A stretch of 38,563 bases of DNA, from NCBI GenBank assembly GCA_001816655.1, contig MHCP01000011.1, positions 1 to 38,563 on the forward strand, read 5' to 3'. Position 1 is the first letter of the stretch; each line of letters begins with the position of its first letter. This DNA is from Candidatus Woykebacteria bacterium RBG_13_40_15. Its GTDB lineage: Bacteria > Patescibacteriota > Microgenomatia > Woykebacterales > RBG-16-39-9b. Made by a program: the position numbers and the translations under genes. Of the stretch, positions 2-32,258 are shown piece by piece. The notes under the pieces are model-generated. The model had not been told where the DNA came from, did not search any database, and saw only the letters and a list, made by a program, of their open reading frames with translations.

Positions 2-3000
2 ACAGTCTGTCTCGAGAACCTCGCTAACTGCCTAGGCTCTGGTGACATCGAGGCCGTTGGTGATGTAACTAGCGGGGAGGCCTTCACAGATGCAGGCTCA
101 AATGGTACTTCCCTTTGGTTTAACAACTCTGGCTTCCAGGGACAACTAACGGTTGGTACTCTCTCTGACAGCAACAAGACCTACACTCTACCCAATCTTA
201 CTGGAGCAGTTGCACTTAGTGTTGGTTCACTCACAAATGGATCAGTCCTATTTGCAGAAAGTGGTCTGATTTCTCAAGATAACGCAACCTTTTATTGGAA
301 TAACTCAACTGATAGGCTTGGGATTGGGACGGATAACCCTGGGGCTAAACTGGATGTCCGGGGTAATGCGATATTTAATGAGGATAGCGGCGACTACGAT
401 TTCCGAGTCGAAGGTGATAATGAAGCCTATATGATTATGGTTGATGCTGGTACCGACACCTTAGGTCTAGGAGATAATGTACAAGCAGATACTAGATTAT
501 ATATTGGATTTGATACCTTAAGCGTTACTCAAGATGCAAGTAGCGAATTTGTTGATATAAATCCGGCTTTAACCGAAGCCGGTAGCGGCACCCACTCAAT
601 AATGGCGGGACTAAATATCCAAGCTCTCACTTTAAACGATGGTGCTGGAGATACGACTACTGCAACAACTCTTAGGGTAGCGGGCGCACCAAGCGGCGCT
701 ACAAATAATTACGCTCTGTGGATCGATGATGGGACTAGCCGGTTTGATAGCCTAGTACAACTTGGCGTGGATGAACCGGCTCTAACACCGAACATTGCTG
801 GGTCGCTAAGATTAATTTCCGCTGACGATAACGCCTACTCGACAACAATTACCGCAGATACCCAAACTCAAAACATCAATTATACGTTGCCACCAAATGA
901 TGGCAGCCCAAACCAAGTCTTACTCACCGATGGTTTCGGCGACCTTAGTTGGTCTACTGTAACTGGCGCTGGTGGTGTTGATATAAACGGCACTCCTACC
1001 ACGGGGCAGGCAACTTTCTGGTTTGACTCAAATACTATTGAAGGTGAGAATGCCTTCTTTTGGGGTAAGAATAATAATGTCTTAATTATTGGCGCTTCTT
1101 CACCTTCCGATGCAGCCGGCTCACATCTTCAAATCTTTGACAATTCCGGCACAGCGCAGCTTAATCTCCTTTATGACGGATCAAACAGCACTAGTTTCAC
1201 AGTTGATAGTTCTGGTAATTTAACGGTCAACGCTACTGGCACAAAAACAGTGATTTCTGATGACTTGCAAGTTTCGGGTAATGATATTCTAAATTCTGGA
1301 GGAAATTCTGCCATTGATGTCAATTCTCGAACTCTTCAAAACGGGGCTTGGACCGCCAATTCCACCGCCAATCCTGGATTTACCGTCGGCGATGGTTCAA
1401 CCGGCTACCTTAAGGTTGGCGGCTCAACTATATCTGACGCAGCAGGCAATCTCACACTAAACTCTGACACCACTATTTTAGCAATTAGCGACGCTACTAT
1501 TCGAGGGGTGGGAGCTTTGACAATAGAATCAACTACCAGCGACCTCACCCTCGATTCTGGCTCGAATATCGTCAAGATTGCCGATGCCACCTTACTAGGA
1601 AACGGCGCCTTGACGGTCTCTTCTGGAGGGAGTGGAAACCTTACTTTGGATTCTGCTTCAGATACGATAGTTATCGCTGCAACTGACACAACAATTCAAA
1701 GAGTAGCGGCTGGTACATTTACCATAGATCTAAATGACGCTAATACAACCTATTTTGACATTATCAACGGCGGTGCTGGTGTTGCTGATTTGAAAATAAA
1801 CGGCACGCCTCTAAGCGACACCGATGCAACCCCCGGTGCTGCGTTAGTCGGAACTTATGATGAGTTTACCAATTCTAATAGTGCTAATGTTCAAGATGTC
1901 TTGGATGACTTAGATGCCGCGATAACCAGCGGTGGTGGTAGCGCCATTTGGACTGATTCTACCCCAGGTACCGGTGCCGGTGTGATTTACCCAACCTACA
2001 ACACCGATGATCTAGCCATCGGTGGGACTATTGTAAATGCCTCTCCATTCGGCGTTGACGAATCTGAGAACACAATATATATCGGTGAGGGTTCAAATAG
2101 TAATGGAACTATCACTTTCAAAGCTTCCGATGGAGATACTGGTAACTTAGCCTACAACATTGACGATCGGTTTGCTTTTACTGGGGGCGGGGTCCTATTT
2201 GATTTTGGGGCGGCTGAACAATTTATCATTGACGCGACTGACCCGAATAGTAGCTTGGCAGGTGCGATAGTGGACATCGACGTTGATTCTCTCACCGATA
2301 GTGGCATTGGAATCGATCTCAATTATGAATCACTTCTTACTAATAATGCGGGTACAGAAATGCAGTACGCTCTTTCAGTCTCTCCGGTCCAAGGCTCTAC
2401 CGGTGCTAGCGGCACCCATGTACTTTACGGAATATATGTTCAAAACCTAGCCACCTCTGGCGTCCCTTCTGGCACCAACACAGAATATGGTATGCGTATT
2501 GGCACGGGCTACGATTACGGCTTGCAAATTGATGATGGGGTCACTACCGCACTTTTACTCGCTTCCAATGACGGCGACGCGGCTTCTGGGATTACGTTTG
2601 GAACTGGTGCAAACGCTGTCAATCTATATCGAAGTGCAAACAATACTTTACGTACTAATGGTAATTTAATTGTAGATTTGGACTTAACCGTTTCCGGCGG
2701 AGATATTATAGGAGCAAATAAAGCATCGATAGATTTGGGAGAAACAGCTGAGGGCCAAATCAGTTTCTTATCAAACAATGACATAGACAACTACATTTAT
2801 TTATTAACTGAAAGTGACCTTCCCCAGATTTTCTGGGAGGGCTCCGAAACAAATGATCCGGGAGTAAGAGTCAATTCCGACGGAAAACTAGAATACAGAG
2901 ATGACAACGATGCGTCCTGGACTACATTTGAAAGTATCAGCGTTGGTTCTGTCACCTTACAAACAGCCTACAATAATGACGCCGATAGCGCTACTGCTGA

Positions 3001-6000
3001 AATCCTGATGACTGCGAGTGATGGCTCAATCGTCTTTAAAACAATTGGAGGCGCCACCGACACCCAATTCCAAATCGCTGCTGCTTCAGCTCCAGAAATA
3101 GACCTTGTCAACATCACCAACACGGGCTTTGCTACAACGACTAATGGGGTAGATGGCCTGTCCATTGATTTTGTAACTGGCGATGGAGCAAGTGTCACCA
3201 ACAATGCTCTAAATATCGCTGTCACCTCTGGGGGAACAGCTAGCGGTGATATAGTAAACGGCATCAATTTATCACTTTCTGGAGCAGGTGGAACAGAAAC
3301 CGCTATCAATATTGGCTCTGGGTGGGATAAGGTTTTTGTTACAAACGCTGATCCGGTCGCAAGTGCAACAAGCAGCCTGATTGAACTTGGCGCTGCTCTT
3401 GTAGGAGGCTCTGCAAGCGGAACATATCTTGGAATAAACGCGGATGTGGGTTACGCTGGGGATTTCTTGAATTTTCAGGTCAATGGGACAACTAGCGCTA
3501 AATTAACAGCAAGCGGAGACTTGACTCTCGCTGGTGGCGATATCGTAGGAGCAGGCTCAACCGCAATTGATATCGGAGAGGCAACTGGCGGAGACATTAC
3601 TTTTAGCAATTCAGCTGCAGCTACGAACGATACCTTGGCTTTAAGACCTTACGCAGCAGGTGCAGCAACGTTCAAAGGAATTTTAACTTCAAACGACTTA
3701 ACAGCCGATAGAACCTGGGCCTTTCCGGATGCCACCGGGACTGTGGCTCTTAGTACCACTGACAAAAGAGTAGCGACCAAAATTGTCGCTGCGAGTAATT
3801 CCAGTAATCCAGATCAGGCCGATTTTAAAGCCGATGGTGCGGGAGGGACGGACGATGCAGTGACAATTGAAAATGCAATCGCTGCTCTTCCGGCCGGCGG
3901 CGGTGTTGTTTACTTACTTGAGGGAACCTACTATATTGGCGATGTTGCCAGCGATGGTGTAGACATCACCAAATCCAATGTTTCCATCATCGGCGTTGGA
4001 CAAGCCACCATCCTGCAAAGAGGTTGGGATGCCACATCAGACGACGGAGTAATCACCGTTGGTGACGGGGGATCAGCCACGGTTACTGGTGTTACTATCG
4101 CCAACCTTTCTATAAATGGGTGCAGGGCGGTCGCAGGTAGCTGCTCGGTAGCATATACCGGTAGTCAAAATTTTGGTATTTACTTTAATTATAAGGTCAC
4201 TTATTCAACTGTCCGTGAAACCTATCTTTATAGTAGCGACGGCGACACAATTTTCCTCCAAGGTAGTACTACTACCAACAATATTATTCAGGCTAATAGC
4301 TTCAATAGTAATAATGGTGATAATATTGTTTTAATGCTCGCCGTAAAAAACAACGTGCTTGGAAACAACATCTCAAACGGCCCCTGTATATTTCTCTCAA
4401 CCAGCGCGAATAACAACACTATATCGGACAACTACTGCCAATCGGGCTCAAATGGTATCGAAATTTCCGCGAGCAGTAATAATACGATCAGCGGCAATGT
4501 AATCCAATCAACCCTTGCATCTGGAATTGCTAGTATTTACTTATTTGGCGCCAGCAACAATACAGTTACCGCTAACACTATCTCCTCGGCTGGAGACGTT
4601 GGAATTAGTATCGAAGGTTCGAGTAATAACAATATTATTACTGCCAATGTCATAAATGAGGTGGGATCCGATCCTGATGATGGTATATTTATGGTAGATT
4701 CTGACAATAACGTTATTTCGTCCAATCGACTTTTAGACGCAAGTAGCAGCCGCTACGGTATCAACATCTCCAACTCCACCTCTAATTACAATCACCTTAT
4801 AGCCAACGAGATTACTGGATCGGGTTTTGCTTCAGGAAAAATTAACGATGCCGGCACCGGCACCACCATTCAACAACGGGATCAGTTTGAGATTGAATCG
4901 ACAAGGACTTTGGGGACCCTACTTTCCTTCGGCATTCCCCAAAGCACTACTTTGATAGGAGCGCTGACTGGTACCGATATCAACTTGTTCAACAGTCTCA
5001 TAGCCACCAATCAGAGTGTAACCGGCCAATATATTCGTCTCCCCACTGTAACCAATACCGGCACAGGTACTTATAATTATGCGGGTTTGAGTATACCTGA
5101 CATTGTGGGGGGCTTGACCCAAAATAATGCTGCTGGAACAACCAACTTCTACGGCCTTGATCTTGACATCCCGGCTATCACTGAAACAAGTGGTACTATC
5201 AACGCCTATGGGATTGATATCTCAGCTGGGGCGGCGGGAGCGGGAAGCACTTTGCGGGCCTTAAACATTGGCAACGCTAGCGGCGCCAGCACAGATAAAA
5301 CCGCCATCAACATTGGCTCTGGGTGGGATACTGGAGTTTCAATCGCTGAAATAGCAGGAGCTGGCAGTGGTATTGCTATCACCGGCACTGGAGCAAGAAC
5401 CGGTAATTTAATTGATCTTACCACTGACGAGACTGGAGATGGTGATCTAATAGATATTAATGTTAATGGAGCCAAAGCAGCAGGCGGCAACATCATTGAA
5501 ATTGAAACTAATGCTGCTGTTGCCAGTGACATCATCAGCATTACTACTAAAGCAGCCGCTACCTCTGGAAACCTAATCGACCTTAACATAGGTACTGTTG
5601 CTGACAGCGGTGATGCCTTCAATCTAACCATTGGTTCCTTAGCCACCGCCGCCCAAGCATTGGTAGTTTCCAACGCTGCTGCTTCCTCCACAGCAGGATG
5701 GCTCATGGATGTTGACACCTCGGCGGCTTGGACGCAGCCTGCTATTGACGTCGATCTTAACACGGCAATTTCAACAGGTAACTTCCTTGACATAACCTAC
5801 AACAACGTTGCTCACACTGGAAATGCGATTGACCTAAACATGGGAACTAACGTTGCCGGAAATGCGATTGACATATCAATCGCTGGATCCCAAAATGCCA
5901 TCCTGGCCATCTTAGGTGCCATTTCTAGCGGGACTGCCAATGGGCTGAATGTTACTCCCCCAGACATCACCACTGCTGGTGGAACAATCAACGGAATTAA

Positions 6001-9000
6001 TATTGGCAGCATCACCACTTCAGGTGGGGCTGACACGGCTATCAATATTGGCTCTGGGTGGGATGCTTCGATTGGAATTGTTGATAATGTGGCTAACGCA
6101 TTTACCATAAAACAAGGATCAAATTCTTACTTTGACATTAGTACTACTGACCTGACCCCTTCCCTCACCCTAGACGTTCCGGTTCAAGGAGGTACTTCAA
6201 CTAATTTGAATATCGGCAACAATACTGGCAATACTGCGGTAAACCTAAAAGCCGGGACCGGCAACGTAAATGTCACCGGCAACCTCCAAGCCCTGGCTTC
6301 CACAAACTTCAATACTCAATTGGTTGGTGGAGCAGAGTTAGGCGTGTCTGGTGCTAAGGTTTATGTTTCTGGCCGATACGCTTACGAGGTTCAGGATAGT
6401 GATGGTGGTGCCGGATATGAATTCAGAATTTACGATGTTTCCAATCCTGCTTCGCCAACAGCGGTTGGTGGAACCAATTTGGGTTACCTTGCCCAAGGTC
6501 TCCACGTCTCTGGCCGGTATGCTTATGTGACTAATAATTCCGATGACAGTACCGGAAATGAATTTCGCATCTTTGATGTCTCCAATCCCTCTTCTCCTAC
6601 CGAAGTCGGCGGATATAACTTGGGTGCCCACGGCTGGGGAGTATTTGTTTCGGGCCGATACGCTTACGTGGCTAGAGACAGTGCCGCAGGCAATGATCTC
6701 ATTATCTTCGATGTTTCCAACCCAGCTTCTCCAAATCCGGTTGGTGGTGTAGATTTAGGCCAAGGTGCGCCTAAGGTGTATGTTTCTGGGAGATATGCCT
6801 ATGTGGTTAAGGGTTCTAGTGTTGGTACCTGCTCCGGTGCCGATCAAACCGGCTGTGAATTTGTCATTTATGACGTTTCTAATCCCACCTCGCCAACAAC
6901 GGCTGGTTGGTATGATCTTGGAATGACTACGGGGTATGCCTGGGATGTGTATGTTTCTGGGAGATATGCCTATGTGGTTAAGGCAAACAATGGCATTGCC
7001 AACGATTTTCTCATCTTCGATGTCTCCAACCCTACCTCCCCAACAGTAGCTGGTGGAGTAAATCTAGGTTATAACGGCTATGCTGTATATGTGTCAGGCA
7101 GATACGCTTATGTAGTTCAAAGCACCGATAGCGGTACCGGCAATGAACTTCGCGTCTTCGATGTCTCCAATCCAGCCTCCCTTAGCGAAGTCGGGGGGTA
7201 TAATCTAGGTGTTGACGGCTGGGGAGTGTTTGTTTCGGGCCGATACGCTTACGTTTCTAGAGATACTAGCGGTAGCGATGAGTTACTCGTCCTTGACGTT
7301 ACCGGCATTGAAACCACCTCCCTTCTTGCCCATGCTTTTGAGGCCGGGAATGGCCAATTTCGCGATGATCTAATTATCGGCAATCAGCTCCAGGTGACTG
7401 GCGGCGCGGTGATCGGCACCGATGGTCTCCTCTCCAACGGCCCAGTCGGGATAAGCGCTATAAACACCGCTAACTCTGGTTTAGACGCCTTAACTCTCTC
7501 GGGAACTTTGGCAGCCTTTAACGGCTCCGATACCTTCCGCGGTCTTTATCTAAATTACATCAATACTGCCTCTCATACTGGTTCAAATACAATAAACCTT
7601 TTCGATATTGCAAATATTGCTGGCCAGGCTAACGCTACTCTTAACGCAATAAACATTGGGCAGCTCACCTCTAACACCGCCGCTGCCGAAACCGCCATCA
7701 ACATCGGCAGTGGGTGGGACATGGCTATAAATCTGGCGGATAGCTCTTCAATTGGCCTTGGAGCAAGCGCTGGAAGGCTAGCCTTTGCCTTAAATGGGGC
7801 TAGTGCTGACACAGTCACCCTCAATAGCGCCAACTTTGTTGTCCAAAATGATCTTTTGGTTAATCTCTCGGCGATTGACCACGGCGACAGCGCTCCCCAA
7901 GGACTCAAACTTCCTCAAGCAAATACACTTACAGCGATTTCCGGCGGCGGTGAGGGTTACATTGCCTACGACCTTGACGGTAATAATCTCAGTTACTTTG
8001 ATGGTTCAAGTTGGTTAGCCGTAGGCACTTCGAATTGGACCGATGGCGGCACTTATCTTTACCCTAATAATTATGAGTCGGTCCGAGTTGGTAGCGACGC
8101 TACCCATTACATTGACATTGCCCACGACGGAACCGACGCCACCCTCTCTTTTGCCCTTACGAATGCTTTGAATATAAACATTGGGACAATTGATCTTTCC
8201 GCCCAAACAGTTGATGTTACCTTAAACGCGGCCGCTGATGCCCTAAACTTCGACTCTAACACCCTCTCTATAGACGCTTCAAACAACCGAGTTGGAATCG
8301 GACTCAACAATCCAAGTGCTGTTCTAGATGTAACAAACAGCAACACAACTAATCTTTTATCGCTTTCTACCACAGGAGCGGTTACAACTCCTACTGCCCT
8401 TGCAATCTCTGCTACCAGTGGTTCAGGTATAATAACCAACGCGATCGACGTTTCAGATACAGAAATTGTTAACGCTATAAACCTAGGGGAAAATAACATA
8501 TTAATGACCGATTCTGGAACGGTCAATTGGAGAGATGGCACATACAATCTTTTTACCTTTAAGGATTTTTCTACTCAATTTGGTGGGGCTGCTTTGGCAG
8601 GCGCCTGGATAGATAAGAATTCTTATTTTGGTGAAGAGTTTACCAGAGAAAGGGCGCAAGTAAGTATTACAGGTAACTTTACCTTTGGGGATACAACTGC
8701 CTGGGGTTCTTCCGAAGTCGGTGTGTGTACCTGGGACATTCAAGATAATACAGCAAACGGAATTCTCCAGCAGACTTTTAGTGGTGGCACAGCCTGCCTA
8801 CTTTATCTTGGCGATGATGCAGGAACAGCAAGTCTAATCTTTAACGCTAGCAACAGACCTATAATTCAAATGAAGGTAAAGCCTAGTGGGTCGGGCGCTG
8901 CTTATGACTTTTGGGTAGGTCTTGGTGATTCAAATTCAGCCACCACCACTCCGCCGACAAATGGAATATATTTCACGAATAACGATAGCGGTTACTGGAC

Positions 9001-10276
9001 TGGGGTAACCAAAGTCGGAGCCAACTCAACTGTTAAAACTTGTAGCTCAACTATATCCACGACCACATTTGCCTATCTTAGAATCGAAGTAAGAAGTACT
9101 ACTGATGTTCGTTTCTTTGTTGATTCCAATGTTGGTGATGGCATAGTTGAAGAAGAATGTGGAACTAGCACAACCTATATCTATACAGCAGGCGGTTTGG
9201 CAGGAAATATTATGCATGCCTTTGTGGGAAATCTCTATGTTGATTATTTCCGAGTCTGGCAAGATGATTCCATCCCAATAGATTCGGATAGCGAAGAAGG
9301 GCTAGGCTCTAGTGACAGCACCGAAATTATTACTCCAACTTCCGGACATGACATTGCCGGCAGATATTCAGCGGCTGACGCTACAAGTCTATCCGCGGCT
9401 GATTTGGTCAGTTTAGACACAAGCGGAAAGGCTATACTTTCTGGTCAATCGTACGATCCTAATATTCTAGGGGTAATTTCCACTTCGCCGAACCAAATCC
9501 TTGGTTATGATGGCGATTGGACAACCGTAGAAGTATCTCTAACCGGTCACACTCCTATTAAAGTCTCAACGGAAAATGGGGCGATACAGCCTGGAGACCC
9601 ACTCACTAGCTCCTCTACTCCCGGTGTGGCAATGAAAGCCACGCAAAGCGGGCCGATTGTTGGAAAGGCGCTTGAGCCATTTGATGGCTCAGTATCAAGT
9701 ATCACGTATCAAGTATCAGGTGAAGAGTTTGCCGGAGGCAAGATTATGGTGTTTGTGAGCGTGGGATGGTACGTTGCCCCGCTTGGCGATAATCCGCCGG
9801 CTGGCGAAGGTAACTTCACTAGTATCGACGTGGGGACTTTGACGGCTGGAACGATAAATAGCCAAGTGCTTTTTGTCGGCGATCGTAAGCTTAGCATGGC
9901 TGCCACTGGCGCACTAATAGTCGATGGTGAAATGAATATCCTTGGCGACCTCTCGGTTGGAGGCGACCTAAAAGTAGCAGGAGCGATAGATACGAAAGAA
10001 TTGACTACGGAAAAGCTAAATATTGCTACTCCTTCTGCTGAACCTGGCGAAATTTCTAAAGCATCGACTGGAATTGAAATCTTAAAAGCTGGTGAAAATG
10101 TTGTTACTATTAAAACTTCCGCAGTAACAAGCGATTCTTTGATATTTGTCACTCCTACTACTGTGACTGATAAAGTACTTTCTGTAACTAAAAAGATAAC
10201 TGGAGATAGCTTTGAGGTAAAGATATTGAATCCATCGGACCAAGATATACAGTTTAATTGGTGGATTGTGAATTAG
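2..10276 (+). CDS. Giant surface/fibre-like protein, 5'-truncated (>3400 aa): beta-rich fibre repeats, right-handed beta-helix (~3770-4870), LVIVD repeats (~6310-7300), peptidase-G2/IMC-like domain and conserved FNWWIVN tail
   Basis: The frame of ORF 431..10276 is open back to base 2 (TVCLENLANCLGSGDIEAVG...RLGIGTDNPGAKLDVRG), so the true start is upstream of the window. Motifs: AIAALPAGGGVVYLLEGTY followed by NNTISGN-type repeats; six VxVSGRYAY[VE]..(F/L)DV repeats; LGVISTSP..ENGAIQPGDPLTSSSTPGVAMKA. Confidence 0.9.
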   Translation, partial: TVCLENLANCLGSGDIEAVGDVTSGEAFTDAGSNGTSLWFNNSGFQGQLTVGTLSDSNKTYTLPNLTGAVALSVGSLTNGSVLFAESGLISQDNATFYWNNSTDRLGIGTDNPGAKLDVRGNAIFNEDSGDYDFRVEGDNEAYMIMVDAGTDTLGLGDNVQADTRLYIGFDTLSVTQDASSEFVDINPALTEAGSGTHSIMAGLNIQALTLNDGAGDTTTATTLRVAGAPSGATNNYALWIDDGTSRFDSLVQLGVDEPALTPNIAGSLRLISADDNAYSTTITADTQTQNINYTLPPNDGSPNQVLLTDGFGDLSWSTVTGAGGVDINGTPTTGQATFWFDSNTIEGENAFFWGKNNNVLIIGASSPSDAAGSHLQIFDNSGTAQLNLLYDGSNSTSFTVDSSGNLTVNATGTKTVISDDLQVSGNDILNSGGNSAIDVNSRTLQNGAWTANSTANPGFTVGDGSTGYLKVGGSTISDAAGNLTLNSDTTILAISDATIRGVGALTIESTTSDLTLDSGSNIVKIADATLLGNGALTVSSGGSGNLTLDSASDTIVIAATDTTIQRVAAGTFTIDLNDANTTYFDIINGGAGVADLKINGTPLSDTDATPGAALVGTYDEFTNSNSANVQDVLDDLDAAITSGGGSAIWTDSTPGTGAGVIYPTYNTDDLAIGGTIVNASPFGVDESENTIYIGEGSNSNGTITFKASDGDTGNLAYNIDDRFAFTGGGVLFDFGAAEQFIIDATDPNSSLAGAIVDIDVDSLTDSGIGIDLNYESLLTNNAGTEMQYALSVSPVQGSTGASGTHVLYGIYVQNLATSGVPSGTNTEYGMRIGTGYDYGLQIDDGVTTALLLASNDGDAASGITFGTGANAVNLYRSANNTLRTNGNLIVDLDLTVSGGDIIGANKASIDLGETAEGQISFLSNNDIDNYIYLLTESDLPQIFWEGSETNDPGVRVNSDGKLEYRDDNDASWTTFESISVGSVTLQTAYNNDADSATAEILMTASDGSIVFKTIGGATDTQFQIAAASAPEIDLVNITNTGFATTTNGVDGLSIDFVTGDGASVTNNALNIAVTSGGTASGDIVNGINLSLSGAGGTETAINIGSGWDKVFVTNADPVASATSSLIELGAALVGGSASGTYLGINADVGYAGDFLNFQVNGTTSAKLTASGDLTLAGGDIVGAGSTAIDIGEATGGDITFSNSAAATNDTLALRPYAAGAATFKGILTSNDLTADRTWAFPDATGTVALSTTDKRVATKIVAASNSSNPDQADFKADGAGGTDDAVTIENAIAALPAGGGVVYLLEGTYYIGDVASDGVDITKSNVSIIGVGQATILQRGWDATSDDGVITVGDGGSATVTGVTIANLSINGCRAVAGSCSVAYTGSQNFGIYFNYKVTYSTVRETYLYSSDGDTIFLQGSTTTNNIIQANSFNSNNGDNIVLMLAVKNNVLGNNISNGPCIFLSTSANNNTISDNYCQSGSNGIEISASSNNTISGNVIQSTLASGIASIYLFGASNNTVTANTISSAGDVGISIEGSSNNNIITANVINEVGSDPDDGIFMVDSDNNVISSNRLLDASSSRYGINISNSTSNYNHLIANEITGSGFASGKINDAGTGTTIQQRDQFEIESTRTLGTLLSFGIPQSTTLIGALTGTDINLFNSLIATNQSVTGQYIRLPTVTNTGTGTYNYAGLSIPDIVGGLTQNNAAGTTNFYGLDLDIPAITETSGTINAYGIDISAGAAGAGSTLRALNIGNASGASTDKTAINIGSGWDTGVSIAEIAGAGSGIAITGTGARTGNLIDLTTDETGDGDLIDINVNGAKAAGGNIIEIETNAAVASDIISITTKAAATSGNLIDLNIGTVADSGDAFNLTIGSLATAAQALVVSNAAASSTAGWLMDVDTSAAWTQPAIDVDLNTAISTGNFLDITYNNVAHTGNAIDLNMGTNVAGNAIDISIAGSQNAILAILGAISSGTANGLNVTPPDITTAGGTINGINIGSITTSGGADTAINIGSGWDASIGIVDNVANAFTIKQGSNSYFDISTTDLTPSLTLDVPVQGGTSTNLNIGNNTGNTAVNLKAGTGNVNVTGNLQALASTNFNTQLVGGAELGVSGAKVYVSGRYAYEVQDSDGGAGYEFRIYDVSNPASPTAVGGTNLGYLAQGLHVSGRYAYVTNNSDDSTGNEFRIFDVSNPSSPTEVGGYNLGAHGWGVFVSGRYAYVARDSAAGNDLIIFDVSNPASPNPVGGVDLGQGAPKVYVSGRYAYVVKGSSVGTCSGADQTGCEFVIYDVSNPTSPTTAGWYDLGMTTGYAWDVYVSGRYAYVVKANNGIANDFLIFDVSNPTSPTVAGGVNLGYNGYAVYVSGRYAYVVQSTDSGTGNELRVFDVSNPASLSEVGGYNLGVDGWGVFVSGRYAYVSRDTSGSDELLVLDVTGIETTSLLAHAFEAGNGQFRDDLIIGNQLQVTGGAVIGTDGLLSNGPVGISAINTANSGLDALTLSGTLAAFNGSDTFRGLYLNYINTASHTGSNTINLFDIANIAGQANATLNAINIGQLTSNTAAAETAINIGSGWDMAINLADSSSIGLGASAGRLAFALNGASADTVTLNSANFVVQNDLLVNLSAIDHGDSAPQGLKLPQANTLTAISGGGEGYIAYDLDGNNLSYFDGSSWLAVGTSNWTDGGTYLYPNNYESVRVGSDATHYIDIAHDGTDATLSFALTNALNINIGTIDLSAQTVDVTLNAAADALNFDSNTLSIDASNNRVGIGLNNPSAVLDVTNSNTTNLLSLSTTGAVTTPTALAISATSGSGIITNAIDVSDTEIVNAINLGENNILMTDSGTVNWRDGTYNLFTFKDFSTQFGGAALAGAWIDKNSYFGEEFTRERAQVSITGNFTFGDTTAWGSSEVGVCTWDIQDNTANGILQQTFSGGTACLLYLGDDAGTASLIFNASNRPIIQMKVKPSGSGAAYDFWVGLGDSNSATTTPPTNGIYFTNNDSGYWTGVTKVGANSTVKTCSSTISTTTFAYLRIEVRSTTDVRFFVDSNVGDGIVEEECGTSTTYIYTAGGLAGNIMHAFVGNLYVDYFRVWQDDSIPIDSDSEEGLGSSDSTEIITPTSGHDIAGRYSAADATSLSAADLVSLDTSGKAILSGQSYDPNILGVISTSPNQILGYDGDWTTVEVSLTGHTPIKVSTENGAIQPGDPLTSSSTPGVAMKATQSGPIVGKALEPFDGSVSSITYQVSGEEFAGGKIMVFVSVGWYVAPLGDNPPAGEGNFTSIDVGTLTAGTINSQVLFVGDRKLSMAATGALIVDGEMNILGDLSVGGDLKVAGAIDTKELTTEKLNIATPSAEPGEISKASTGIEILKAGENVVTIKTSAVTSDSLIFVTPTTVTDKVLSVTKKITGDSFEVKILNPSDQDIQFNWWIVN

Positions 10277-10304
10277 TTAAAAGTTCAAAGTGCAAAGTTA
10301 AAAG
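10277..10304. repeat. Heptamer array, left arm of four-helix-bundle cassette 1
   Basis: TTAAAAG TTCAAAG TGCAAAG TTAAAAG fills the gap between the giant-gene stop codon and the next ATG. Confidence 0.8.
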
Positions 10305-10307
10305 TCT

Positions 10308-10688
10308 ATGAGAGCTAATAATAATGAAGATTTTAGAAGAAAACTAATAAGTAGGACTTTTGTTTTAGCTAAGAAAGTAATTCACTTAGTAGATAAATCC
10401 CCTAACAAGAGGTCCGCTTGGGTAATTTCCGACCAATTAATAAGGGCCACAACAAGTATTGGAGCAAATATCATCGAGGCGCAAGCGGCAAGCAGCAAAA
10501 AGGATTTTATTAACTTTTTGAATCATGCTCTGAAAAGCGGAAACGAAACAAAATTTTGGTTATCTCTAGCAAAAGAAATCATGCCAGAAACTGCTGATCA
10601 AATCAGCGATCTTCTAAAAGAGGTGGGAGAGTTAACTAAAATTCTCGGATCAAGCATTTCGACACTTAAAGGAAAGAACAAACTTTGA
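10308..10688 (+). CDS. Four-helix-bundle protein (TIGR02436 / 23S rRNA IVS-protein family, Avd-like fold)
   Basis: 126 aa with DQLIRATTSIGANIIEAQAASSKKDFINFLNHALKSGNETKFWL, the characteristic family motif. Confidence 0.9.
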   Translation: MRANNNEDFRRKLISRTFVLAKKVIHLVDKSPNKRSAWVISDQLIRATTSIGANIIEAQAASSKKDFINFLNHALKSGNETKFWLSLAKEIMPETADQISDLLKEVGELTKILGSSISTLKGKNKL

Positions 10689-10716
10689 ACTCTAAATTGC
10701 AATTTTTAACTTTGAA
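10683..10716. repeat. Heptamer array, right arm of cassette 1 (inverted)
   Basis: CTTTGAA CTCTAAA TTGCAA TTTTTAA CTTTGAA; CTTTGAA is the reverse complement of TTCAAAG in the left arm. Confidence 0.7.
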
Positions 10717-10731
10717 TTAAAAATAAGCCAC

Positions 10732-10760
10732 TTGACAGGATTTATTAATATAGTTAGACT
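10732..10760 (+). promoter_or_regulatory. Sigma70-type promoter
   Basis: TTGACA-N17-TAGACT, 30 nt before ATG 10791. Confidence 0.7.
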
Positions 10761-10790
10761 AAAGAGCGATTACTAAAAAGAGGGTAAAAA

Positions 10791-13052
10791 ATGAAAGAAA
10801 CAATTTCAATTTTGGCTACTAAAACGATACAAATCGGGCTTGTACTTTTAGCTTTTTTGATTCCAATTTTTTTCCTACCGACAACTAGCGAATTTTATAA
10901 TTTCAACAAAGTAACGCTTCTCGTAATCGGCACTTTCTTCCTTCTATTTGTATGGGGAATAAAGATGGTGGCAGAACAGCGGGTACGGATAACAACTACC
11001 CCACTTGATATTCCGCTACTTCTTTTCCTTGGAGCATTTGTTTTAGCTACGCTTTTTTCGATTGATCCTGTGGTTTCTTTTATTGGTGCTCACCCGGTGT
11101 TTTTTGGATCGCTGCTCTCAGTAGCAGCTCTTATCATACTTTACTTTTTAGCTGTGGTTCATCTTGATAGCACTTATAGAAGTGCTCTTTTGGTTGCCTT
11201 TGCGGCATCTGCCACGGTTTTAGCTGCCTGCCTAATCGCTTATTACTTTGGGCATCCCCTGCTTTCGCAGTCATGGGCAAAAGCGAGAAACTGGACTCCA
11301 GCTGGCAATCTTGATTCTTTAGCTTTCTTCCTGGCAATCGCTTCGCTTCTAACAGCCTCACTTGCTGTCTTTACAAAACAGCAAATTATGAAGTACATAT
11401 TATTTGTTCTAGTAGCTATACAAATAGTAGCTTTAATTTTGATAAATAGCCTCTTTTCTTATATAGCCATCGCTACAGGAATTGCCTTCATAGTGTTATT
11501 TTTAACCCAAGTTAAACTAAATCAAGACGACAAGATTGGACTCATTATAATTTCGGTTATTGCTGTAGTTTTAGCGGTTTTAGTAAATGTAAGCCCACTT
11601 GGCGATTCAATAATAAAGCCGCTTATTGCGGGCAGTGACAAGAATGTCTCTATTACTAAACCGATACGGCTCCCATTGCAAGCTGCTTGGCAATCAAGCG
11701 CCTCCTCCCTAACAATTAGGCCAATTTTTGGCAGTGGGCCGGGAACTTTTGGGACAATTTTCCCTTCATTCAAACCAATCTCACTGAATGCGGTTAATAC
11801 AAATAATGTTTGGAATATAAGATTTGACCAGCCCAATAGCGGCCTACTTGATATTTTAGCTTCGACAGGAGCGGTAGGAATAATTGCTTTTCTAATTTTG
11901 GCTTTCGTTCTTTTGAGGGTTTTAATTTCATTTTCTAATAAGTCGGAGCTTGTGCGTAGCAATCCCTTTGTAATATTTTTACAAGCATCGCTAGTCGTCT
12001 TCCTTTTCGGTCTTATCTTCTTTGATTTTTCAGTGATTACTGCTTGTGCCTTCTTTTTAATTACAGCTGCTTTCTTTACCCTTGTTCGTGATTGGGGGTC
12101 AAACCTAGCAAGTGAAGTTGATCTTGAGCTGGTAACTTTGAAGGCGGGGGCAATAAGAGCTGTCAGCGCAGACGAAAAAGCTAGGCCAAATTCCTTTGCG
12201 TGGGTTATATTTATTCCCGCAGTGCTTTTATTCGTCGGGGTGATATTTCTTTCCTGGAAAACATATCAAGCTGAATTTTATTACCGAAAGGCAATCGTAG
12301 CATTTAATGACAACAAAGCTGACGAAACCAGGAAGGAATTAATCGCCGCTATAAAGGCAAACACCTACCGGGACACTTATCACCGGGCCCTTCTGGTCAC
12401 CGATCTAGCTATCGCCCAGGCATTAAATAGGAAGGGCGATCTGTCTCAAAACGAGCAAAATACCCTTGCCGCCCTGGTTACTGAAGCAATAGCTCAAGGA
12501 AAGATAATAACAGGTTATGAAGGTAGTGGACTAGGCGTATTTCAAATAAAGAAAGTACCAGGCACCTCTAGTTATAATGTAGCAAATTGGGAAAGTCTAG
12601 CTAATGTTTATGCTAATATTGGGGGAAACTTAAGAAACGACGCCTCTGTCCACGCTATTAATACTTTCTCACAAGCCGTCAGGCTAGACTCAACCAACCC
12701 AAGGCTCTACGAAGCTTTAGGAAATGTTTACTTTAACCTGGGAGACGTAGATAATGCCATAAAAAACTTTGAACTAGCTACCTCAGCAAAAGTTGACTAC
12801 GCGTCAGCCCATTACAACCTGGCACAAAGCTTGAAGAGAAAAGGAGACAATCCAGCTAGGGTTGTAAATGAGCTTTCATATACATTGCAAATCTTAAAGA
12901 ACAACAATGAGAAAAGCAGTGTAATTAATCAAGTACAAAAAGAACTAGATGAAGCACAGAAAGAATTGGAAAAGGCTCAGCAAAAAGCCCAAACCCAAAA
13001 GCCAGCTTCTACAATTACTCCAACTGCTAGCCCAAGTGTAGCTCCTAAATAA
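10791..13052 (+). CDS. O-antigen ligase (Wzy_C)-like polytopic membrane protein with C-terminal TPR repeats
   Basis: About 12 hydrophobic helices, loop motif RPIFGSGPGTF..N..LDILASTGAVG, and TPR-like YEALGNVYFNLGDVDNAIKNFELA..AHYNLAQ. Confidence 0.8.
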   Translation: MKETISILATKTIQIGLVLLAFLIPIFFLPTTSEFYNFNKVTLLVIGTFFLLFVWGIKMVAEQRVRITTTPLDIPLLLFLGAFVLATLFSIDPVVSFIGAHPVFFGSLLSVAALIILYFLAVVHLDSTYRSALLVAFAASATVLAACLIAYYFGHPLLSQSWAKARNWTPAGNLDSLAFFLAIASLLTASLAVFTKQQIMKYILFVLVAIQIVALILINSLFSYIAIATGIAFIVLFLTQVKLNQDDKIGLIIISVIAVVLAVLVNVSPLGDSIIKPLIAGSDKNVSITKPIRLPLQAAWQSSASSLTIRPIFGSGPGTFGTIFPSFKPISLNAVNTNNVWNIRFDQPNSGLLDILASTGAVGIIAFLILAFVLLRVLISFSNKSELVRSNPFVIFLQASLVVFLFGLIFFDFSVITACAFFLITAAFFTLVRDWGSNLASEVDLELVTLKAGAIRAVSADEKARPNSFAWVIFIPAVLLFVGVIFLSWKTYQAEFYYRKAIVAFNDNKADETRKELIAAIKANTYRDTYHRALLVTDLAIAQALNRKGDLSQNEQNTLAALVTEAIAQGKIITGYEGSGLGVFQIKKVPGTSSYNVANWESLANVYANIGGNLRNDASVHAINTFSQAVRLDSTNPRLYEALGNVYFNLGDVDNAIKNFELATSAKVDYASAHYNLAQSLKRKGDNPARVVNELSYTLQILKNNNEKSSVINQVQKELDEAQKELEKAQQKAQTQKPASTITPTASPSVAPK

Positions 13053-13464: not shown

Positions 13465-14496
13465 TTAAATCTTTCTAATCAGTTCGTCTTGCAAAGTCCT
13501 TATACCCTCCCCACTCATGGCAGAGATAGGTAATACTTTGATCTTCTTATTTTTAAATTGAGATATTTTGTTCTTTAAATCATCATCGGTAAGTAGATCA
13601 ATCTTAGTCAAAATGATAATTTGTGGTTTATCTACTAATTCTTTAGAGTGAGACGACAGTTCATTATTTATAATTGTAAGTTTTAAGGTTGGGTTTTCCT
13701 CTTCGGCCGAGATTAAATGAAGCAGAAGTTTAGTTCTTTCAACATGCCTAAGAAATAGATCACCTAACCCCTTGCCCTTCGAAGCTCCTTCTATCAAACC
13801 AGGAATATCAGCCAAAACTAGCTCTTTTCCGTAGCCTGCCCCCCGAAGCCTTGGCGAAGGGGGGTGGTGCATAACCCCTAAGTTTGGCTCCAGTGTTGTA
13901 AAAGGGTAAGAGGCAATTTTAGGAGTAGCAGAAGTTAATTTTGATAAAAGTGTGCTTTTTCCGGCATTTGGAAGACCTATCAACCCAACATCGGCCAAAA
14001 GTTTCAACTCTAGCACCAATTCAATTTCTTGTCCTTCTTCCCCCGGTTCGTGCCACCGCCATAAATCTTTCTCGCTATATCCTTCTGATATCTTAGATCT
14101 TAGATCTGATTTCTTAATATGGGCATTTCCCCGACCGCCTTTTCCACCTTTGACTATCATTACCTTTTCTCCTACGCGAGTTAAATCTGCAAAAAGATGT
14201 CCTTGGTTGTCAGTTACCTTCGTCCCAGCTGGCACTGATAGAAACAAGGTGCTGCCTGCTGCTCCTTTCTTATGCTTTTCCGCACCTCGAGCGCCGTCAG
14301 TAGCCTTGAAATCCTTCTTATAACGATACGGGAGTAGCGTGGTTAGGTTTTTATCAACCGCTAGATAAACATCACCGCCAGCTCCTCCATCACCACCGTC
14401 CGGTGGTCCAAGGCTTCGTCGCCCTTGCTTCGCGAAGGAGACAGCGCCGCTACCTCCCTTTCCTGCTTTAACTTTTAGCCTAACGTAATCAATCAT
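13465..14496 (-). CDS. obgE: GTPase ObgE/CgtA
   Basis: Gly-rich Obg N-domain (GPPDGGDGGAGG), LELKLLADVGLIGLPNAGKSTLL, YPFTTLEPNLG, DIPGLIEGAS, TKID. Confidence 0.97.
   Translation of the reverse strand: MIDYVRLKVKAGKGGSGAVSFAKQGRRSLGPPDGGDGGAGGDVYLAVDKNLTTLLPYRYKKDFKATDGARGAEKHKKGAAGSTLFLSVPAGTKVTDNQGHLFADLTRVGEKVMIVKGGKGGRGNAHIKKSDLRSKISEGYSEKDLWRWHEPGEEGQEIELVLELKLLADVGLIGLPNAGKSTLLSKLTSATPKIASYPFTTLEPNLGVMHHPPSPRLRGAGYGKELVLADIPGLIEGASKGKGLGDLFLRHVERTKLLLHLISAEEENPTLKLTIINNELSSHSKELVDKPQIIILTKIDLLTDDDLKNKISQFKNKKIKVLPISAMSGEGIRTLQDELIRKI
13835..13864. repeat. 30-nt REP-like hairpin inserted in frame in obgE (encodes about PPSPRLRGAG)
   Basis: CCTG-CCCCCC-GAAGCCTTGGCGAA-GGGGGG, preceded by GTAG; lies between NLGVMHH and YGKELVLADIPG, a loop that is normally short. 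Confidence 0.7.
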
Positions 14497-18173: not shown

Positions 18174-18194
18174 ACTACTTATCCTTTTTTACTT

Positions 18195-18223
18195 TTGACT
18201 TTTGACTTCAAATATGGTATAAA
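18195..18223 (+). promoter_or_regulatory. Sigma70-type promoter for the SAM-fibre gene
   Basis: TTGACT-N17-TATAAA with an extended -10 TG. Confidence 0.65.
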
Positions 18224-21200: not shown

Positions 21201-22896
21201 TACCGATTCTTCGATATTAAGTTTATATTTCTTAGGCACTCAGTACTTAAGCCCCAACCAATTAGCTATAGCCGACGTTAGTGGGGATGGCAAGGTTAGC
21301 CTCGATGATGATATTATACTTTCTTCTCTTATATACGACACCTATCCCAACAAGTACGACCCGAAAAGATTAATCGGTAATTTATACGGTGCCGGAACTA
21401 CGACACGGTTTGATGTCAACGGAGATATGGACGTCACCGGCAGCACGATTACTTTTGGAAGCTTTGCCAGCTGCGGAGCACTTTCTACAAACAGTTCCGG
21501 CGCTCTTGTGTGCAATACCGGTACCGGCGACACGGCAACTTTTACTGACGCCTCTCCAGGTGTCGTAGCAGATTCTGATGCAACAGAAATGTTTAATGAC
21601 GCCACACGGCCAAATATAACTCCAAATTCAGCTACTCAAACTGTTTTAGTTCATGCATCAGTGCGATTGGACGCTTCAGGAATAGCTGATGCAATAGCGG
21701 CTTTCAGAATTGTCCGTGAGGATGATGGCGGTTCGACTACACCTGTCTGTGATGGTACTGACCCTCAAGTAGGAAATACAATGATCGCTGGTGATCTGTT
21801 ACTATCAACCGATTTTAGTCAAGCCCAAGCTACAGTCTTGGACGCCCCGGCCAGCACCGCCGCCGTCTATTACACTGTCTGTACCAGCACAGATACTAAT
21901 ATGGGCGCGAACGTGCCGACTGCAACAAGTGTGACGGTAACATTAATTGAACTTGGGGCCGACCTTGCGGAAAATTACTATACGACTGATGATTCAATAG
22001 CCCCTGGGCAAATAGTTTCGACTGACAACTCAATACCCGCCGGGGCGGAAAAAACCACCAGAGCTTACGACTCGCAAATCCTCGGCGTTGTTTCCACTGC
22101 TCCTGGAAAAATTCTGGATGATGGGCTAGGCCTGAACTTTGGAAGGGCAATTCCTGTCGCTTTGGTCGGTCGAGTGCCGGTAAAAGTGAATGGTGAAAAC
22201 GGACCCATCGCAGTCGGCGACCTGATAACTAGTTCGTCCACTCCCGGAGTGGGCATGAAGGCTACAAAGGCAGGTTACGTGATCGGGCGGGCTTTAACCT
22301 CCTTCAGCGGTCAAGGAGAAGGTGCTGTAGTTGCTTTCGTAAATACCCAGTACGCAGATCCTGCGAATTTAGAAGCCGAGGGAAATTTGTTAGATTTAAC
22401 CGATTCTAGTTCAACTCCTAGTGCAGAGGCAACCAACTCCTCTTCTCTCAAACTTGACACAGAAAATAATATTGTCGCAACACTTTCTAGTGGGACCAGA
22501 TTTGTCTGGGTCAATTCGCTTGGTAAAGCGCTTGCCTGGATTTCTGATACAGGCGAGGCTTTTTTTGAGAAAGTTACTGCCCTGGTTGGTAATTTCCAAA
22601 AATTGATCTTTGGTGAACTGGTCGCTTCCAAAGACTCGCAAAATGCCGGTCAGGCCAGTTTCGAGCCTGATCAAACCGAAGTGGTTATTGAATCAGAAAA
22701 AGTGACCGAAGACTCTCTAATCTACGTTACCGCGGCAACTAAAACTGACGGTATTTCCCTTTACATTAAGGAGCAAAGGCCTGGGGAAGGCTTTACAGTG
22801 GCTCTGGAACGATCTAGCGGTGATCTACCAAACGAGGCAACAGCTTCAGCAACTCAAGCGATCAAGTTCAATTGGCTAATTATTAACCGGGAATAG
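18274..22896 (+). CDS. Fusion protein: integrase/Xer N-terminal SAM-like domain, TM helix, then a large extracellular fibre (CBM-like, dockerin-like, peptidase-G2-like, FNWLIIN tail)
   Basis: YKEYLKQSGYSTPTVKNYLSDLRYFCDWL..SINSRKASSLRGFLSWA; TM ~18730-18810; ILSFQGRLTN domain; NRVVNPSFE..IYVDAVQLE; GDIDLNGTINATDSSIL..ADVSGDGKVSLDD; GADLAENY..VALVGRVPVKV. AGGA lies 7 nt before the ATG. Confidence 0.88.
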   Translation: MNILPNDDPVGGVVFKYKEYLKQSGYSTPTVKNYLSDLRYFCDWLKNHHKDLFSLTKGDLDNYQFHLSIIFKNKPSINSRKASSLRGFLSWATKEQILSIQETALIQTESKLTSAKKLTWFLSLISFKPARERISHFTSYRPDWYHRYHRWSFAATLHYIVLISFLVVAGGSLIYFYIFRPEMNQTKKEFVAELGSVLAASPPKILSFQGRLTNPTTGQPIIIATNIVFRIYTSTSGDTGSPCANTCKWESKTWSVTPDANGIFSVTLGDTGASDTEIPDTLFTDNPTLYLGVKVGADAEMAPRQRIASSSYALNSDALEGFHGSQSPGANQVPILDGSGNLMFAGAATIGTSANALTLDSASGTLALGSGTTTISSAGALTLNSTTSSAVTLDSSTTGTINIGNNANAKTINIGNATDTTLVNIDSGTSGVTIDSTGTGDILVNSTDTLLLDSAGVLELNSSAGVISIGNDAVAQNINIGTGAAARTITIGNTTTTTGIVLTKGASGEITLTGYDATCTALETDADGHLNCGTDDGGGGALHQITAATGDNSINNAAWNQVWNWQLAGAESGFKFAENAASTGGGTNDQFIVDIATLATSTAGPLRVTSNSIDTSDIVFNLNSLGDIEIQDAGAAFATFADDGTITLGKSAAASAINIGTGTAGNTIYIGTDNSTKDTISIGSALDDVAITGDDWSMTNAGVLQFGATGSYDTNLYRSAANTLKTDDSIISAGLASVSGSNSVSNVPYNLLTDKATTNRVVNPSFEVNVTDGWQAYGGAVAGDLSQNATPYVGTYSMRIYKTGAAINDGAQTTTMPVSASTKYVASVFVIAVSGSPTFKISLTGDNSGQTQSGEYTARAVTRWQRFFVYKQSNSSDTTFTFEIYSSAAQNFYIYVDAVQLEQVSCNKSSCATSYADGSLGPEYAWTGTAHNSSSTRTTGIKYLGGGTSGPDLYIGGGAYFEGGSGDIDLNGTINATDSSILSLYFLGTQYLSPNQLAIADVSGDGKVSLDDDIILSSLIYDTYPNKYDPKRLIGNLYGAGTTTRFDVNGDMDVTGSTITFGSFASCGALSTNSSGALVCNTGTGDTATFTDASPGVVADSDATEMFNDATRPNITPNSATQTVLVHASVRLDASGIADAIAAFRIVREDDGGSTTPVCDGTDPQVGNTMIAGDLLLSTDFSQAQATVLDAPASTAAVYYTVCTSTDTNMGANVPTATSVTVTLIELGADLAENYYTTDDSIAPGQIVSTDNSIPAGAEKTTRAYDSQILGVVSTAPGKILDDGLGLNFGRAIPVALVGRVPVKVNGENGPIAVGDLITSSSTPGVGMKATKAGYVIGRALTSFSGQGEGAVVAFVNTQYADPANLEAEGNLLDLTDSSSTPSAEATNSSSLKLDTENNIVATLSSGTRFVWVNSLGKALAWISDTGEAFFEKVTALVGNFQKLIFGELVASKDSQNAGQASFEPDQTEVVIESEKVTEDSLIYVTAATKTDGISLYIKEQRPGEGFTVALERSSGDLPNEATASATQAIKFNWLIINRE
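18293..18318 (+). terminator. Intrinsic-terminator-like hairpin within codons 7-15 of the SAM-fibre gene
   Basis: ACGACCCCG-TTGG-CGGGGTCGT-TTTT. Confidence 0.55.
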
Positions 22897-22924
22897 TTGG
22901 TAGTTGGTATTTAGTATTATGTAT
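22894..22924. repeat. Heptamer array, left arm of four-helix-bundle cassette 2
   Basis: TAGTTGG TAGTTGG TATTTAG TATTATG TAT, starting at the stop codon of the fibre gene. Confidence 0.8.
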
Positions 22925-22928
22925 AAAA

Positions 22929-23309: not shown

Positions 23310-23335
23310 TACTTACTACTCAATACTGAATACTA
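23301..23335. repeat. Heptamer array, right arm of cassette 2 (inverted)
   Basis: AATACCT AATACTT ACTACTC AATACTG AATACTA; AATACTA is the reverse complement of TAGTATT in the left arm. Confidence 0.8.
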
Positions 23336-30776: not shown

Positions 30777-30840
30777 TTCTAGGTTTTAGGTTTCAAATTT
30801 TACGCCCTAGACCTTAGAACTTAGAACTTAGAACATAAAC
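30777..30840. repeat. Empty heptamer-periodic inverted repeat after rho
   Basis: TTCTAGG TTTTAGG ... CCTAGAC CTTAGAA CTTAGAA CTTAGAA CATAAAC. Confidence 0.72.
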
Positions 30841-32112: not shown

Positions 32113-32258
32113 AACTTAATAATTAAGAATTAAGAACGAAAAATTAATTTCTTTATAATCAACGGTCAAAATTTCCATCGCTATTGGGAAAACAAAACTT
32201 GCGAGGTTAAAAATCACCCACATTTAATCACACAAAATAGCATTTGTCAACACTATTG

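Follow-up and report, generated by a model that had tools for sequence, protein, structure and literature searches.

The stretch of DNA analysed here (the window) is the entire contig MHCP01000011.1 of Candidatus Woykebacteria bacterium RBG_13_40_15 (assembly GCA_001816655.1), 38,563 nt in length, and belongs to a genome of 983 kb and 40.7% G+C that carries five genes of the four-helix-bundle family TIGR02436. One of these, the focal gene of this study (126 aa, 10308–10688, + strand), lies between a giant fibre-like open reading frame (ORF) of 3281 aa (431–10276, + strand, taken from the ORF list), which ends in ...FNWWIVN, and a membrane/TPR gene of 753 aa (10791–13052, + strand, matching Pfam TPR families), which is syntenic with the fibre gene in related genomes. 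The focal gene is enclosed by two inverted arrays of 7-nt units, a 5′ arm at 10275–10305 and a 3′ arm at 10681–10724, both given on the + strand. Read in order, about five units, the ATG, the TIGR02436 gene, its stop codon and about five complementary units make up a cassette that fits exactly between the last codon of the fibre gene and a promoter-like site of the next gene.

The 5′ arm has the core AAAGT and consists of four in-phase units (10277–10304) preceded by a degenerate first unit, in which the stop codon TAG of the fibre gene (10274–10276) is embedded. The four units are followed by TCT and by the ATG at 10308, the end of the arm lying 2 nt from the start codon, and the array obtained a score of 14.0 from the array caller and a period-7 score of 17/21. 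The 3′ arm is built of degenerate CTTTGAA-type complementary units (direct repeat D4; inverted repeats I1, I3, I5, and I7) with a period-7 score of 13/21, and it starts within the last codons of the gene, one CTTTGAA copy at 10683–10689 overlapping the stop codon TGA (10686–10688) and another being found at 10710–10716. A preliminary description of this DNA had reported a fourfold heptamer reaching from the fibre stop codon almost to the ATG, and complementary units beginning in the last codons; both are present, the latter in degenerate form. The same description proposed that the arms could pair, and this also held, as two inverted repeats connect them (10273–10300 with 10693–10720, 28 nt and 71% complementary; 10293–10303 with 10704–10714, 11 nt and 100% complementary) and the RNA duplex between the arms reached −17.6 kcal/mol compared to −6.1 ± 2.4 kcal/mol with shuffled 3′ arms, none of 500 shuffles being as good. 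A similar result was obtained for the other four cassettes of the genome. In contrast, the fold of the whole 466-nt region, which the description had suggested as a check, was ordinary (z −0.49; 29 of 100 shuffles folded equally well), and the pairing was therefore assessed from the arms alone. No Rfam match at E ≤ 1 was found in 9500–11500.

Just beyond the cassette, a consensus scan identified the promoter-like TTGACA-17-TAGACT (10732–10760, + strand; 10 of 12 positions, a match to the consensus only), which is probably the promoter of the downstream gene itself. The TTGACA box is also present in the short spacers of two relatives lacking the cassette (L122 and L137), in L122 again followed by TAGACT, and since the box is kept in these spacers, the insert can be delimited to approximately 10275–10724. 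The cassette thus probably has no promoter of its own and depends on read-through from the fibre gene.

The protein encoded by the focal gene matched the TIGR02436/PF05635 (23S_rRNA_IVP) profile of NCBIfam with 97 bits (cut-off 24) over positions 3–109 of 109, and it also matched PDB entry 2RLD, which contains five chains (E 9.4e-18). Its score against the equivalog of Avd, a protein of diversity-generating retroelements (DGRs), was 23.6 bits, far below the cut-off of 80. The only RVT_1 match in the genome (53122–53709 of another contig, C15) has its nearest family gene at a distance of about 24 kb, and a reading of the focal gene as part of a DGR was rejected, as no reverse transcriptase is found nearby. 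Past groEL on contig C15 follow a heptamer array (50978–51001), a G+C-rich stretch and, about 2 kb from groEL, the region of the match (52858–53916), which may represent a group II intron.

To place the arms against the background of the genome, we scored the complementarity between the upstream flank and the reverse complement of the downstream flank for 900 ORFs of at least 90 aa. The five TIGR02436 genes ranked 1, 2, 5, 9 (the focal gene), and 10. A period-7 score of at least 14 on both flanks was observed for 7 of 941 ORFs, three of them family genes; the focal gene passed this value on its 5′ side only, and the family gene on contig C30 passed on neither side, yet ranked second in complementarity. 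The RNA duplex energy of the 100-nt flanks discriminated poorly (ranks 22, 28, 30, 92, and 208 of 900, the last being the focal gene) because it tracks G+C content, and the composition-free alignment score was used instead. These results confirm that the focal feature is real and non-random.

The window carries a second cassette at 22894–23334 (+ strand), composed of a 5′ arm (22894–22924), a TIGR02436 ORF (22929–23309), and a 3′ arm (23300–23334), whose arms differ from those of the focal cassette and have period-7 scores of 17 and 17; this is the copy ranking fifth in complementarity. It is preceded by a 1540-aa protein with carbohydrate-binding module (CBM) and dockerin features, ending in ...FNWLIINRE, the ORF of which extends two codons into the arm and is terminated by a TAG of the arm. 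A response-regulator gene is convergent on this cassette. The heptamer differs in the flanks of each of the five TIGR02436 genes of the genome, and the other four proteins are 24–28% identical to the focal protein. As for the fibre-like ORF upstream of the focal cassette, it holds four in-phase GTATCA-type heptamers of its own (9691–9721), which fall into one class with the arms of the contig C25 cassette, and its C-terminal 70 residues matched K1-lyase_C weakly (22.5 bits, under the cut-off of 27).

Beyond this genome, TIGR02436 was found in 30 of the 41 related genomes (own included), with 1–18 matches each. For a family-wide survey, we pooled 108 ORFs, namely the five from the own genome, loci of the relatives, and 80 loci obtained through an alignment of seven proteins of one clade, requiring at least 90 matched profile positions and at least 130 nt on each side, so that shorter matches and copies at contig ends were dropped; as 80 of the 108 loci come from a single protein clade, mostly of metagenome-assembled genomes of Patescibacteria, the counts are descriptive and not independent. 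At least one arm with a period-7 score of 14 or more was present in 99 of the 108 loci, and both arms in 70. The 5′ arm reached this score in 84/108 loci and the 3′ arm in 85/108, compared to 3/107 and 0/107, respectively, in flanks shifted 110 nt outward. The mean alignment score between the arms was 16.6 within the same locus, 8.9 for arms of different loci, and 7.4 for shifted flanks, and an alignment score of at least 14 was found in 72/108 loci compared to 0/107 of the shifted ones. The arms adjoin the gene closely, the median distance being 3 nt both from the end of the 5′ arm to the ATG and from the stop codon to the start of the 3′ arm. Shine-Dalgarno motifs were observed in 15/108 family leaders, 201/704 ORFs of the own genome, 7/89 of the next ORFs, and 16% of shuffled leaders. 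An outer second arm pair was rare (score ≥14 in 2/108 loci, ≥12 in 6/108), and the idea that cassettes insert into the loops of older heptamer hairpins was rejected on this ground.

A plasmid search with the protein of the second cassette returned 28 records, mostly from cyanobacteria but also from Riemerella and Azospirillum, and 12 of these were examined. By our own count, 9 of the 12 loci have at least one clear period-7 arm, including copies from Riemerella and, among cyanobacteria, from Nostoc, Aulosira, Geminocystis, and Pseudanabaena. Three cyanobacterial plasmid copies (L183, L187, and L189) are located within CRISPR-cas operons, two in the order cas6-gene-cas4 and one in the order cas10-gene-cmr3, and some plasmid copies adjoin transposases. 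The survey shows that the arm-gene-arm architecture belongs to the gene family as such, and that the focal cassette typifies a widespread class of cassettes.

The arms are of narrowly limited size. Four units were counted in 45 of 84 5′ arms and 40 of 88 3′ arms and five units in a further 19 and 24, respectively, whereas only one 5′ arm and six 3′ arms had more than five; arm length is thus 28–35 nt, and such a narrow peak is not the tail that free slippage would give. On the sense strand the arms are strongly polarised, with 6.5% C and 21.9% G in 5′ arms compared to 6.6% G and 20% C in 3′ arms, and with 101 occurrences of TAG compared to 14 of CTA in 5′ arms. Stop codons in all three frames occur within the 45 nt 5′ of the ATG in 63/108 loci. 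Mismatches between units cluster in few columns, in 51/69 arrays more strongly than under a uniform null (p=3e-4). The 4-nt cores recur across genomes while the spacer bases turn over, the commonest periodic core being GTAT (25/78 5′ arms, 25/77 3′ arms), followed by GAAT and GTAG. When core class was mapped on the protein tree, a FastTree phylogeny in which many forks are unresolved, 9 changes were needed among 53 labelled rows, compared to 20.1 on average and never fewer than 15 when the labels were shuffled 300 times. The core therefore follows the protein tree, indicating that the arms are inherited along with the gene, although recognition is not thereby shown. Among close pairs (75–86% protein identity) the 5′ arms were 77% identical in the ATG register compared to 46–53% for third codon positions, the latter figure counting identical codons only.

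The coding sequence is fitted into the arrays at both ends. Among the 31 GTAT-class 5′ arms, 16 are placed so that the ATG supplies the remainder of the following core (GT|ATG), compared to 4.4 expected. At the other end, the stop codon shares bases with the initial core of the 3′ arm in 14 of the 30 arms of the ATAC class and 17 of the 22 of the ATTC class. Both codons are thus phase-locked into the arrays. Between the arms, 2525 aligned positions from 87 loci comprised 2115 Watson-Crick pairs (84%), 98 G·U and 102 A·C pairs, and 210 transversion mismatches. Hence there was no excess of G·U over A·C in this sample, nor any unit-by-unit covariation, since the observed complementarity of 17.5 compares with 18.1 after permutation of the 3′ units and 0 of 52 loci reached p≤0.05. 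Considering these features together, the arms look like inverted arrays of binding sites and not like a perfect RNA stem under selection: they carry a common core in inverse orientation and are able to pair imperfectly, and their variable positions do not co-vary.

The cassettes sit inside operons. In the 108 loci, for which neighbouring ORFs were called crudely, a co-directional ORF ends no more than 200 nt upstream in 85 (median 32 nt from stop to ATG) and a co-directional ORF starts downstream in 89 (median 36 nt past the stop codon), and the spacers between these co-directional genes are filled by the arms. Homologues of the fibre C-terminus were found in 20 of the 41 related genomes (own, G000, included), and by tblastn the fibre and TPR/membrane genes were syntenic at 10 of 27 fibre-homologue loci, own included. 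At this junction the spacer measures 514 nt in G000 (the focal window), with the TIGR02436 cassette, and 475 nt in G005, with a cassette of the focal protein subfamily and the same A-rich arm class; it is only 3–53 nt long and empty in G028, G001, G009, and G011. In G012 and G007, the closest relatives by the downstream gene, it is 1.2 kb long and holds a gene resembling those of IS200 insertion sequences (IS) and of transposases associated with repetitive extragenic palindromes (REP-associated tyrosine transposase, RAYT) on the opposite strand (L116 2467–3225 and L135 2154–2849, both on the − strand). The RAYT-like gene of L116 is flanked by short ORFs in which DKAWPC-type peptides recur, suggesting repeats.

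Other inserts are found after fibre-type genes elsewhere. Genes ending in ...FNWWIVN are followed in G013 and G032 by TIGR02436 cassettes of other subfamilies, and fibre-type genes in G022 and G039 by verified genes of the four helix bundle suffix family TIGR04258, which are flanked by 9-nt arrays and encode proteins of about 190 aa with YK-rich repeat peptides (L124 933–1496, − strand, in G039; L129 1847–2443, + strand, in G022). Look-alike inserts after fibre-type genes in G040 and G026, and the loci L130 and L134, are putative TIGR04258 candidates only. In G003, a genome with no TIGR02436 match, the fibre homologue is followed by a gene-less pair of heptamer arms of about 7 and 5 units (L136, G003:C7). 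Of 25 distinct sites examined in relatives, no fewer than 6 have a four-helix-bundle gene behind a fibre-type C-terminus (four TIGR02436, two verified TIGR04258). Such a C-terminus also precedes two of the five cassettes of the own genome and, counting these two, is the end of 5 of the 85 upstream ORFs of the wider sample. We conclude that the fibre-neighbour junction is an insertion hot spot, and it is well supported that the cassette is an entity of its own, inherited, gained, and lost as a unit, the junction being empty or differently occupied in relatives.

On balance, the features above make it reasonably probable that the arms are arrays of binding sites for the encoded protein, carried within a compact and apparently promoter-less arm-gene-arm cassette (10275–10724). 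This reading is suggested by the 4–5 units, the conserved core with free spacers, the symmetric arms, the fixed polarity, and the phase-locked codons. Each arm would then offer a row of short sites to the protein, and as relatives form homopentameric rings, one unit per subunit is likely. Read-through from the fibre gene would transcribe the cassette, protein bound to the 5′ array of the transcript would cover its own AUG, and the two arms could, in addition, pair imperfectly to give a stem of about 30 bp, the kind of structure that RNase III cleaves in the intervening sequences (IVSs) of rRNA; pairing and cutting are a possible consequence of the arms at the RNA level. A bolder form of this proposal, which we regard as speculative and more probably wrong than right, is that the pentamer reads a heptamer code in single-stranded nucleic acid, with a core of 4–5 nt per subunit and a spacing of 7 nt. 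Five units would wrap the ring and the own start codon would lie in the last unit; different clades would read different cores (GTAT, GAAT, GTAG, GATT, AAAGT, and others), and solitary arrays would be targets in trans or footprints.

Several observations weigh against the site-array interpretation. The 3′ arm, which on RNA carries the complement of the core, is conserved as well as the 5′ arm (85 vs. 84 of 108 loci), which DNA recognition or pairing explains better than an RNA operator alone. The 3′ arm of the focal cassette is degenerate, the agreement between core and protein tree may be plain co-descent of labels common to kin, and the survey draws mostly on one clade. Three of the 12 plasmid loci (Calothrix, Anabaena 90, and Picosynechococcus) lack clear period-7 arms, despite which the flanks are complementary in Anabaena 90 and Picosynechococcus, and the Pseudanabaena copy has direct and not inverted arrays, about 12 AAAAGCT units upstream and AAAAGCC downstream. 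Avd, the nearest studied relative, binds nucleic acids and is not known to do so with clear sequence specificity. Finally, neither recombinase nor transposase is encoded in the cassette, and the low identity between the copies gives no sign of recent transposition in the genome.

The preliminary description had instead placed the cassette among IVS-like RNA elements, the arms being selected to pair so that the ORF is looped out and RNase III can cleave, which would free a small mRNA or remove it from the operon transcript. The duplex energies of all five cassettes, the 84% Watson-Crick pairs, and the presence of RNase III in the genome agree with this, as do an arm length of 28–35 nt fitting an RNase III substrate, arms that pair in register in an Azospirillum IVS (own reading), and the 28-bp Coxiella IVS stem, in which RNase III is reported to cleave at the first heptamer (PMC4990558). 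However, G·U pairs are no commoner than A·C pairs, permuted units are as complementary as the observed ones, a stem needs no conserved 4-nt core with free spacers, the whole region folds no better than expected, and cutting would sever host operon transcripts between co-directional genes in 85–89 of the 108 loci. We therefore consider this explanation rather unlikely, if worth keeping in view. Of the earlier proposal, the setting in a protein operon, with no Rfam match, stands, but neither of two tests gave a sign of selection on an RNA stem. Its statement that family members occur in 23S rRNA IVSs was substantiated by Azospirillum and Coxiella, the flanks of the other family genes of the genome, which it proposed to examine, carry arrays or complementarity that random genes do not show at an equal rate, and the mobility that it thought possible agrees with the pattern of gain and loss.

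Such mobility could also mean that the cassette is a DNA-level element, with the arms acting as terminal inverted arrays bound as DNA, and an external recombinase or slippage at hairpins during replication inserting and excising it. The equal conservation of both arms and the strand symmetry of the mismatch classes suit this idea, and so do the alternation of empty junctions, other cassettes, TIGR04258 genes, and the RAYT-like transposase gene at the hot spot, the gene-less arm pair in a genome devoid of the family gene, and the occurrence of cassettes in operons as unrelated as the cas operons of cyanobacterial plasmids. Yet no recombinase is found inside or beside the cassette, target-site duplications were not noticed in passing (no search was aimed at one), near-identical cassette copies are absent from the genome, and phase-locked codons together with gene-relative polarity suggest a role in expression as well; this alternative thus appears unlikely. 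With no transposase in the cassette and other copies that share only 24–28% protein identity and have different arms, two marks of a transposable element with terminal inverted repeats are missing. The cassette would be no selfish unit at all if it were a regulatory module of the fibre gene, for example a stabiliser of its 3′ end or an attenuator, for which the repeated association with fibre-type C-termini, in relatives and in the own genome, could be cited. This is very unlikely, since 80 of the 85 genes preceding a cassette belong to different types, cas operons and the vicinity of transposases are among the settings of the plasmid copies, arm class and protein subfamily vary between genomes at the same junction, and four relatives retain the fibre-neighbour synteny with no insert. 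Chance low-complexity sequence in an AT-rich spacer, finally, might be invoked on account of the genomic G+C content, the weak focal 3′ arm, and the rank of 208 for flank duplex energy, but it is refuted by the complementarity ranks, the duplex shuffles, and the family-wide counts of armed loci against shifted controls, and its probability is negligible.

Heptamer arrays are not confined to the cassettes. One caller found 61 period-7 arrays in the genome compared to 13, 16, and 19 arrays for periods 5, 8, and 10, periods 6 and 9 being unusable as controls as they are inflated by coding periodicity. The five cassettes account for 8 of the 61 arrays, and most of the others are unpaired and located at gene boundaries, as are those at 14084–14107, 18186–18208, 30805–30837, 32116–32136, and 32298–32323 of the window. 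One solitary array starts 5 nt past the stop codon of rho. An inverted partner (score ≥11) was found for 13 of the 61 arrays, cassette arms included, compared to 6 in the control, and most solitary arrays have no inverted partner inside 700 nt; the idea that they are empty hairpins was rejected because most are unpaired. Seven genomes lacking the family had 11 solitary period-7 arrays in 326 kb (mean of control periods 3.7) and five genomes carrying it had 76 in 400 kb (control 25.7), which is only suggestive of a dependence of array abundance on the family protein, since G035 has few arrays, G003 has an excess with no gene, G039 is rich in arrays of all periods, and kin are not independent. 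In G022:C1 (L176–L179 joined), nested arm pairs of several heptamer classes with no gene inside were observed in intergenic DNA at approximately 8138–8427 and 57181–57403.

PF05635/TIGR02436 is a large and widespread family with solved structures whose function is not known, and nearly all sampled members have the arm-gene-arm design. New in the present analysis are the 4–5 units per arm with their fixed polarity, the core that tracks the protein tree, the phase-locked start and stop codons, and the lack of G·U excess and covariation. The design offers an explanation for the excess of intergenic 7-nt arrays in this genome, and possibly for the heptamer repeats of cyanobacteria, and for annotation it means that such cassettes should be recognised as insertions within operons, cas operons included. 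If the heptamer code were true, the 61 arrays of the genome, and possibly the cyanobacterial repeats and the arms of rRNA IVSs, would be among its targets or footprints, and a large family with no known function would turn out to consist of naturally programmable repeat-reading proteins on a selfish cassette. The origin and spread of rRNA IVSs is a long-standing question, and the arm-gene-arm design makes both this and the function of the family testable at the bench.

Among systems already described, Avd of DGRs forms a pentameric ring and is related to the focal protein in its four-helix-bundle sequence, weakly as the match is; unlike Avd, the focal gene has no reverse transcriptase near it. 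The trp RNA-binding attenuation protein (TRAP) is a ring that reads short repeats at period 5, and the likeness to it is one of analogy only, as both systems combine a ring oligomer, short spaced cores with free spacers, and an array over a start codon, whereas the fold is unrelated, the period is 7 and not 5, the units number 4–5, and binding is putative for the focal protein. In a DGR survey, PF05635 is noted to resemble Avd. The short tandemly repeated repetitive (STRR) sequences of heterocystous cyanobacteria are likewise tandem 7-nt intergenic arrays, and the cyanobacterial plasmid copies of the family are flanked by such arrays; by description, however, STRR sequences are dispersed repeats with no assigned function, and no stated link between them and TIGR02436 was found in the literature listing. 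With miniature inverted-repeat transposable elements (MITEs) and IS elements, and with REP/RAYT systems, the cassette shares inverted ends, presence or absence at a hot spot, and, in G012 and G007, a RAYT-like gene at the same junction, but it differs in encoding no transposase, in having ends that are arrays of 7-nt units differing between copies, and in forming no identical multi-copy family in the genome.

The closest counterpart is the ORF-bearing IVS of 23S rRNA. In PMC4990558, the IVS of Coxiella burnetii is described as having three tandem heptamers and a degenerate one before the ATG of S23p, the number varying between strains, and a Xanthomonas homologue as a homopentameric toroid; S23p itself is there suggested not to be made in vivo. 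A study of rRNA insertions in the Candidate Phyla Radiation (CPR) places 23S_rRNA_IVP ORFs inside both 16S and 23S insertions. Full-text searches, subscription journals being outside their coverage, returned no report of heptamer repeats tied to TIGR02436/PF05635 outside Coxiella. In our own plasmid set, the copy on AZO_p2 of Azospirillum lipoferum is a true IVS, as the sequence surrounding it is that of a 23S rRNA gene (Rfam LSU, 508.9 bits), and its ORF is flanked on each side by four to five heptamers. The focal cassette differs from these in lying between protein-coding genes and not in an rRNA helix, and its excision by RNase III is putative; the sampled copies outside rRNA also lack unit-by-unit covariation and G·U excess. 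No printed description of a cassette class of this kind as such was found. The focal cassette has in common with the rRNA elements the protein family, inverted arms of about four 7-nt units, heptamers reaching up to the ATG, arms that can pair, and a sporadic distribution as for horizontally moved elements. In conclusion, the focal cassette is the protein-operon counterpart of the ORF-bearing 23S rRNA IVSs, and the class to which it belongs is a variant of rRNA IVSs living in protein operons.

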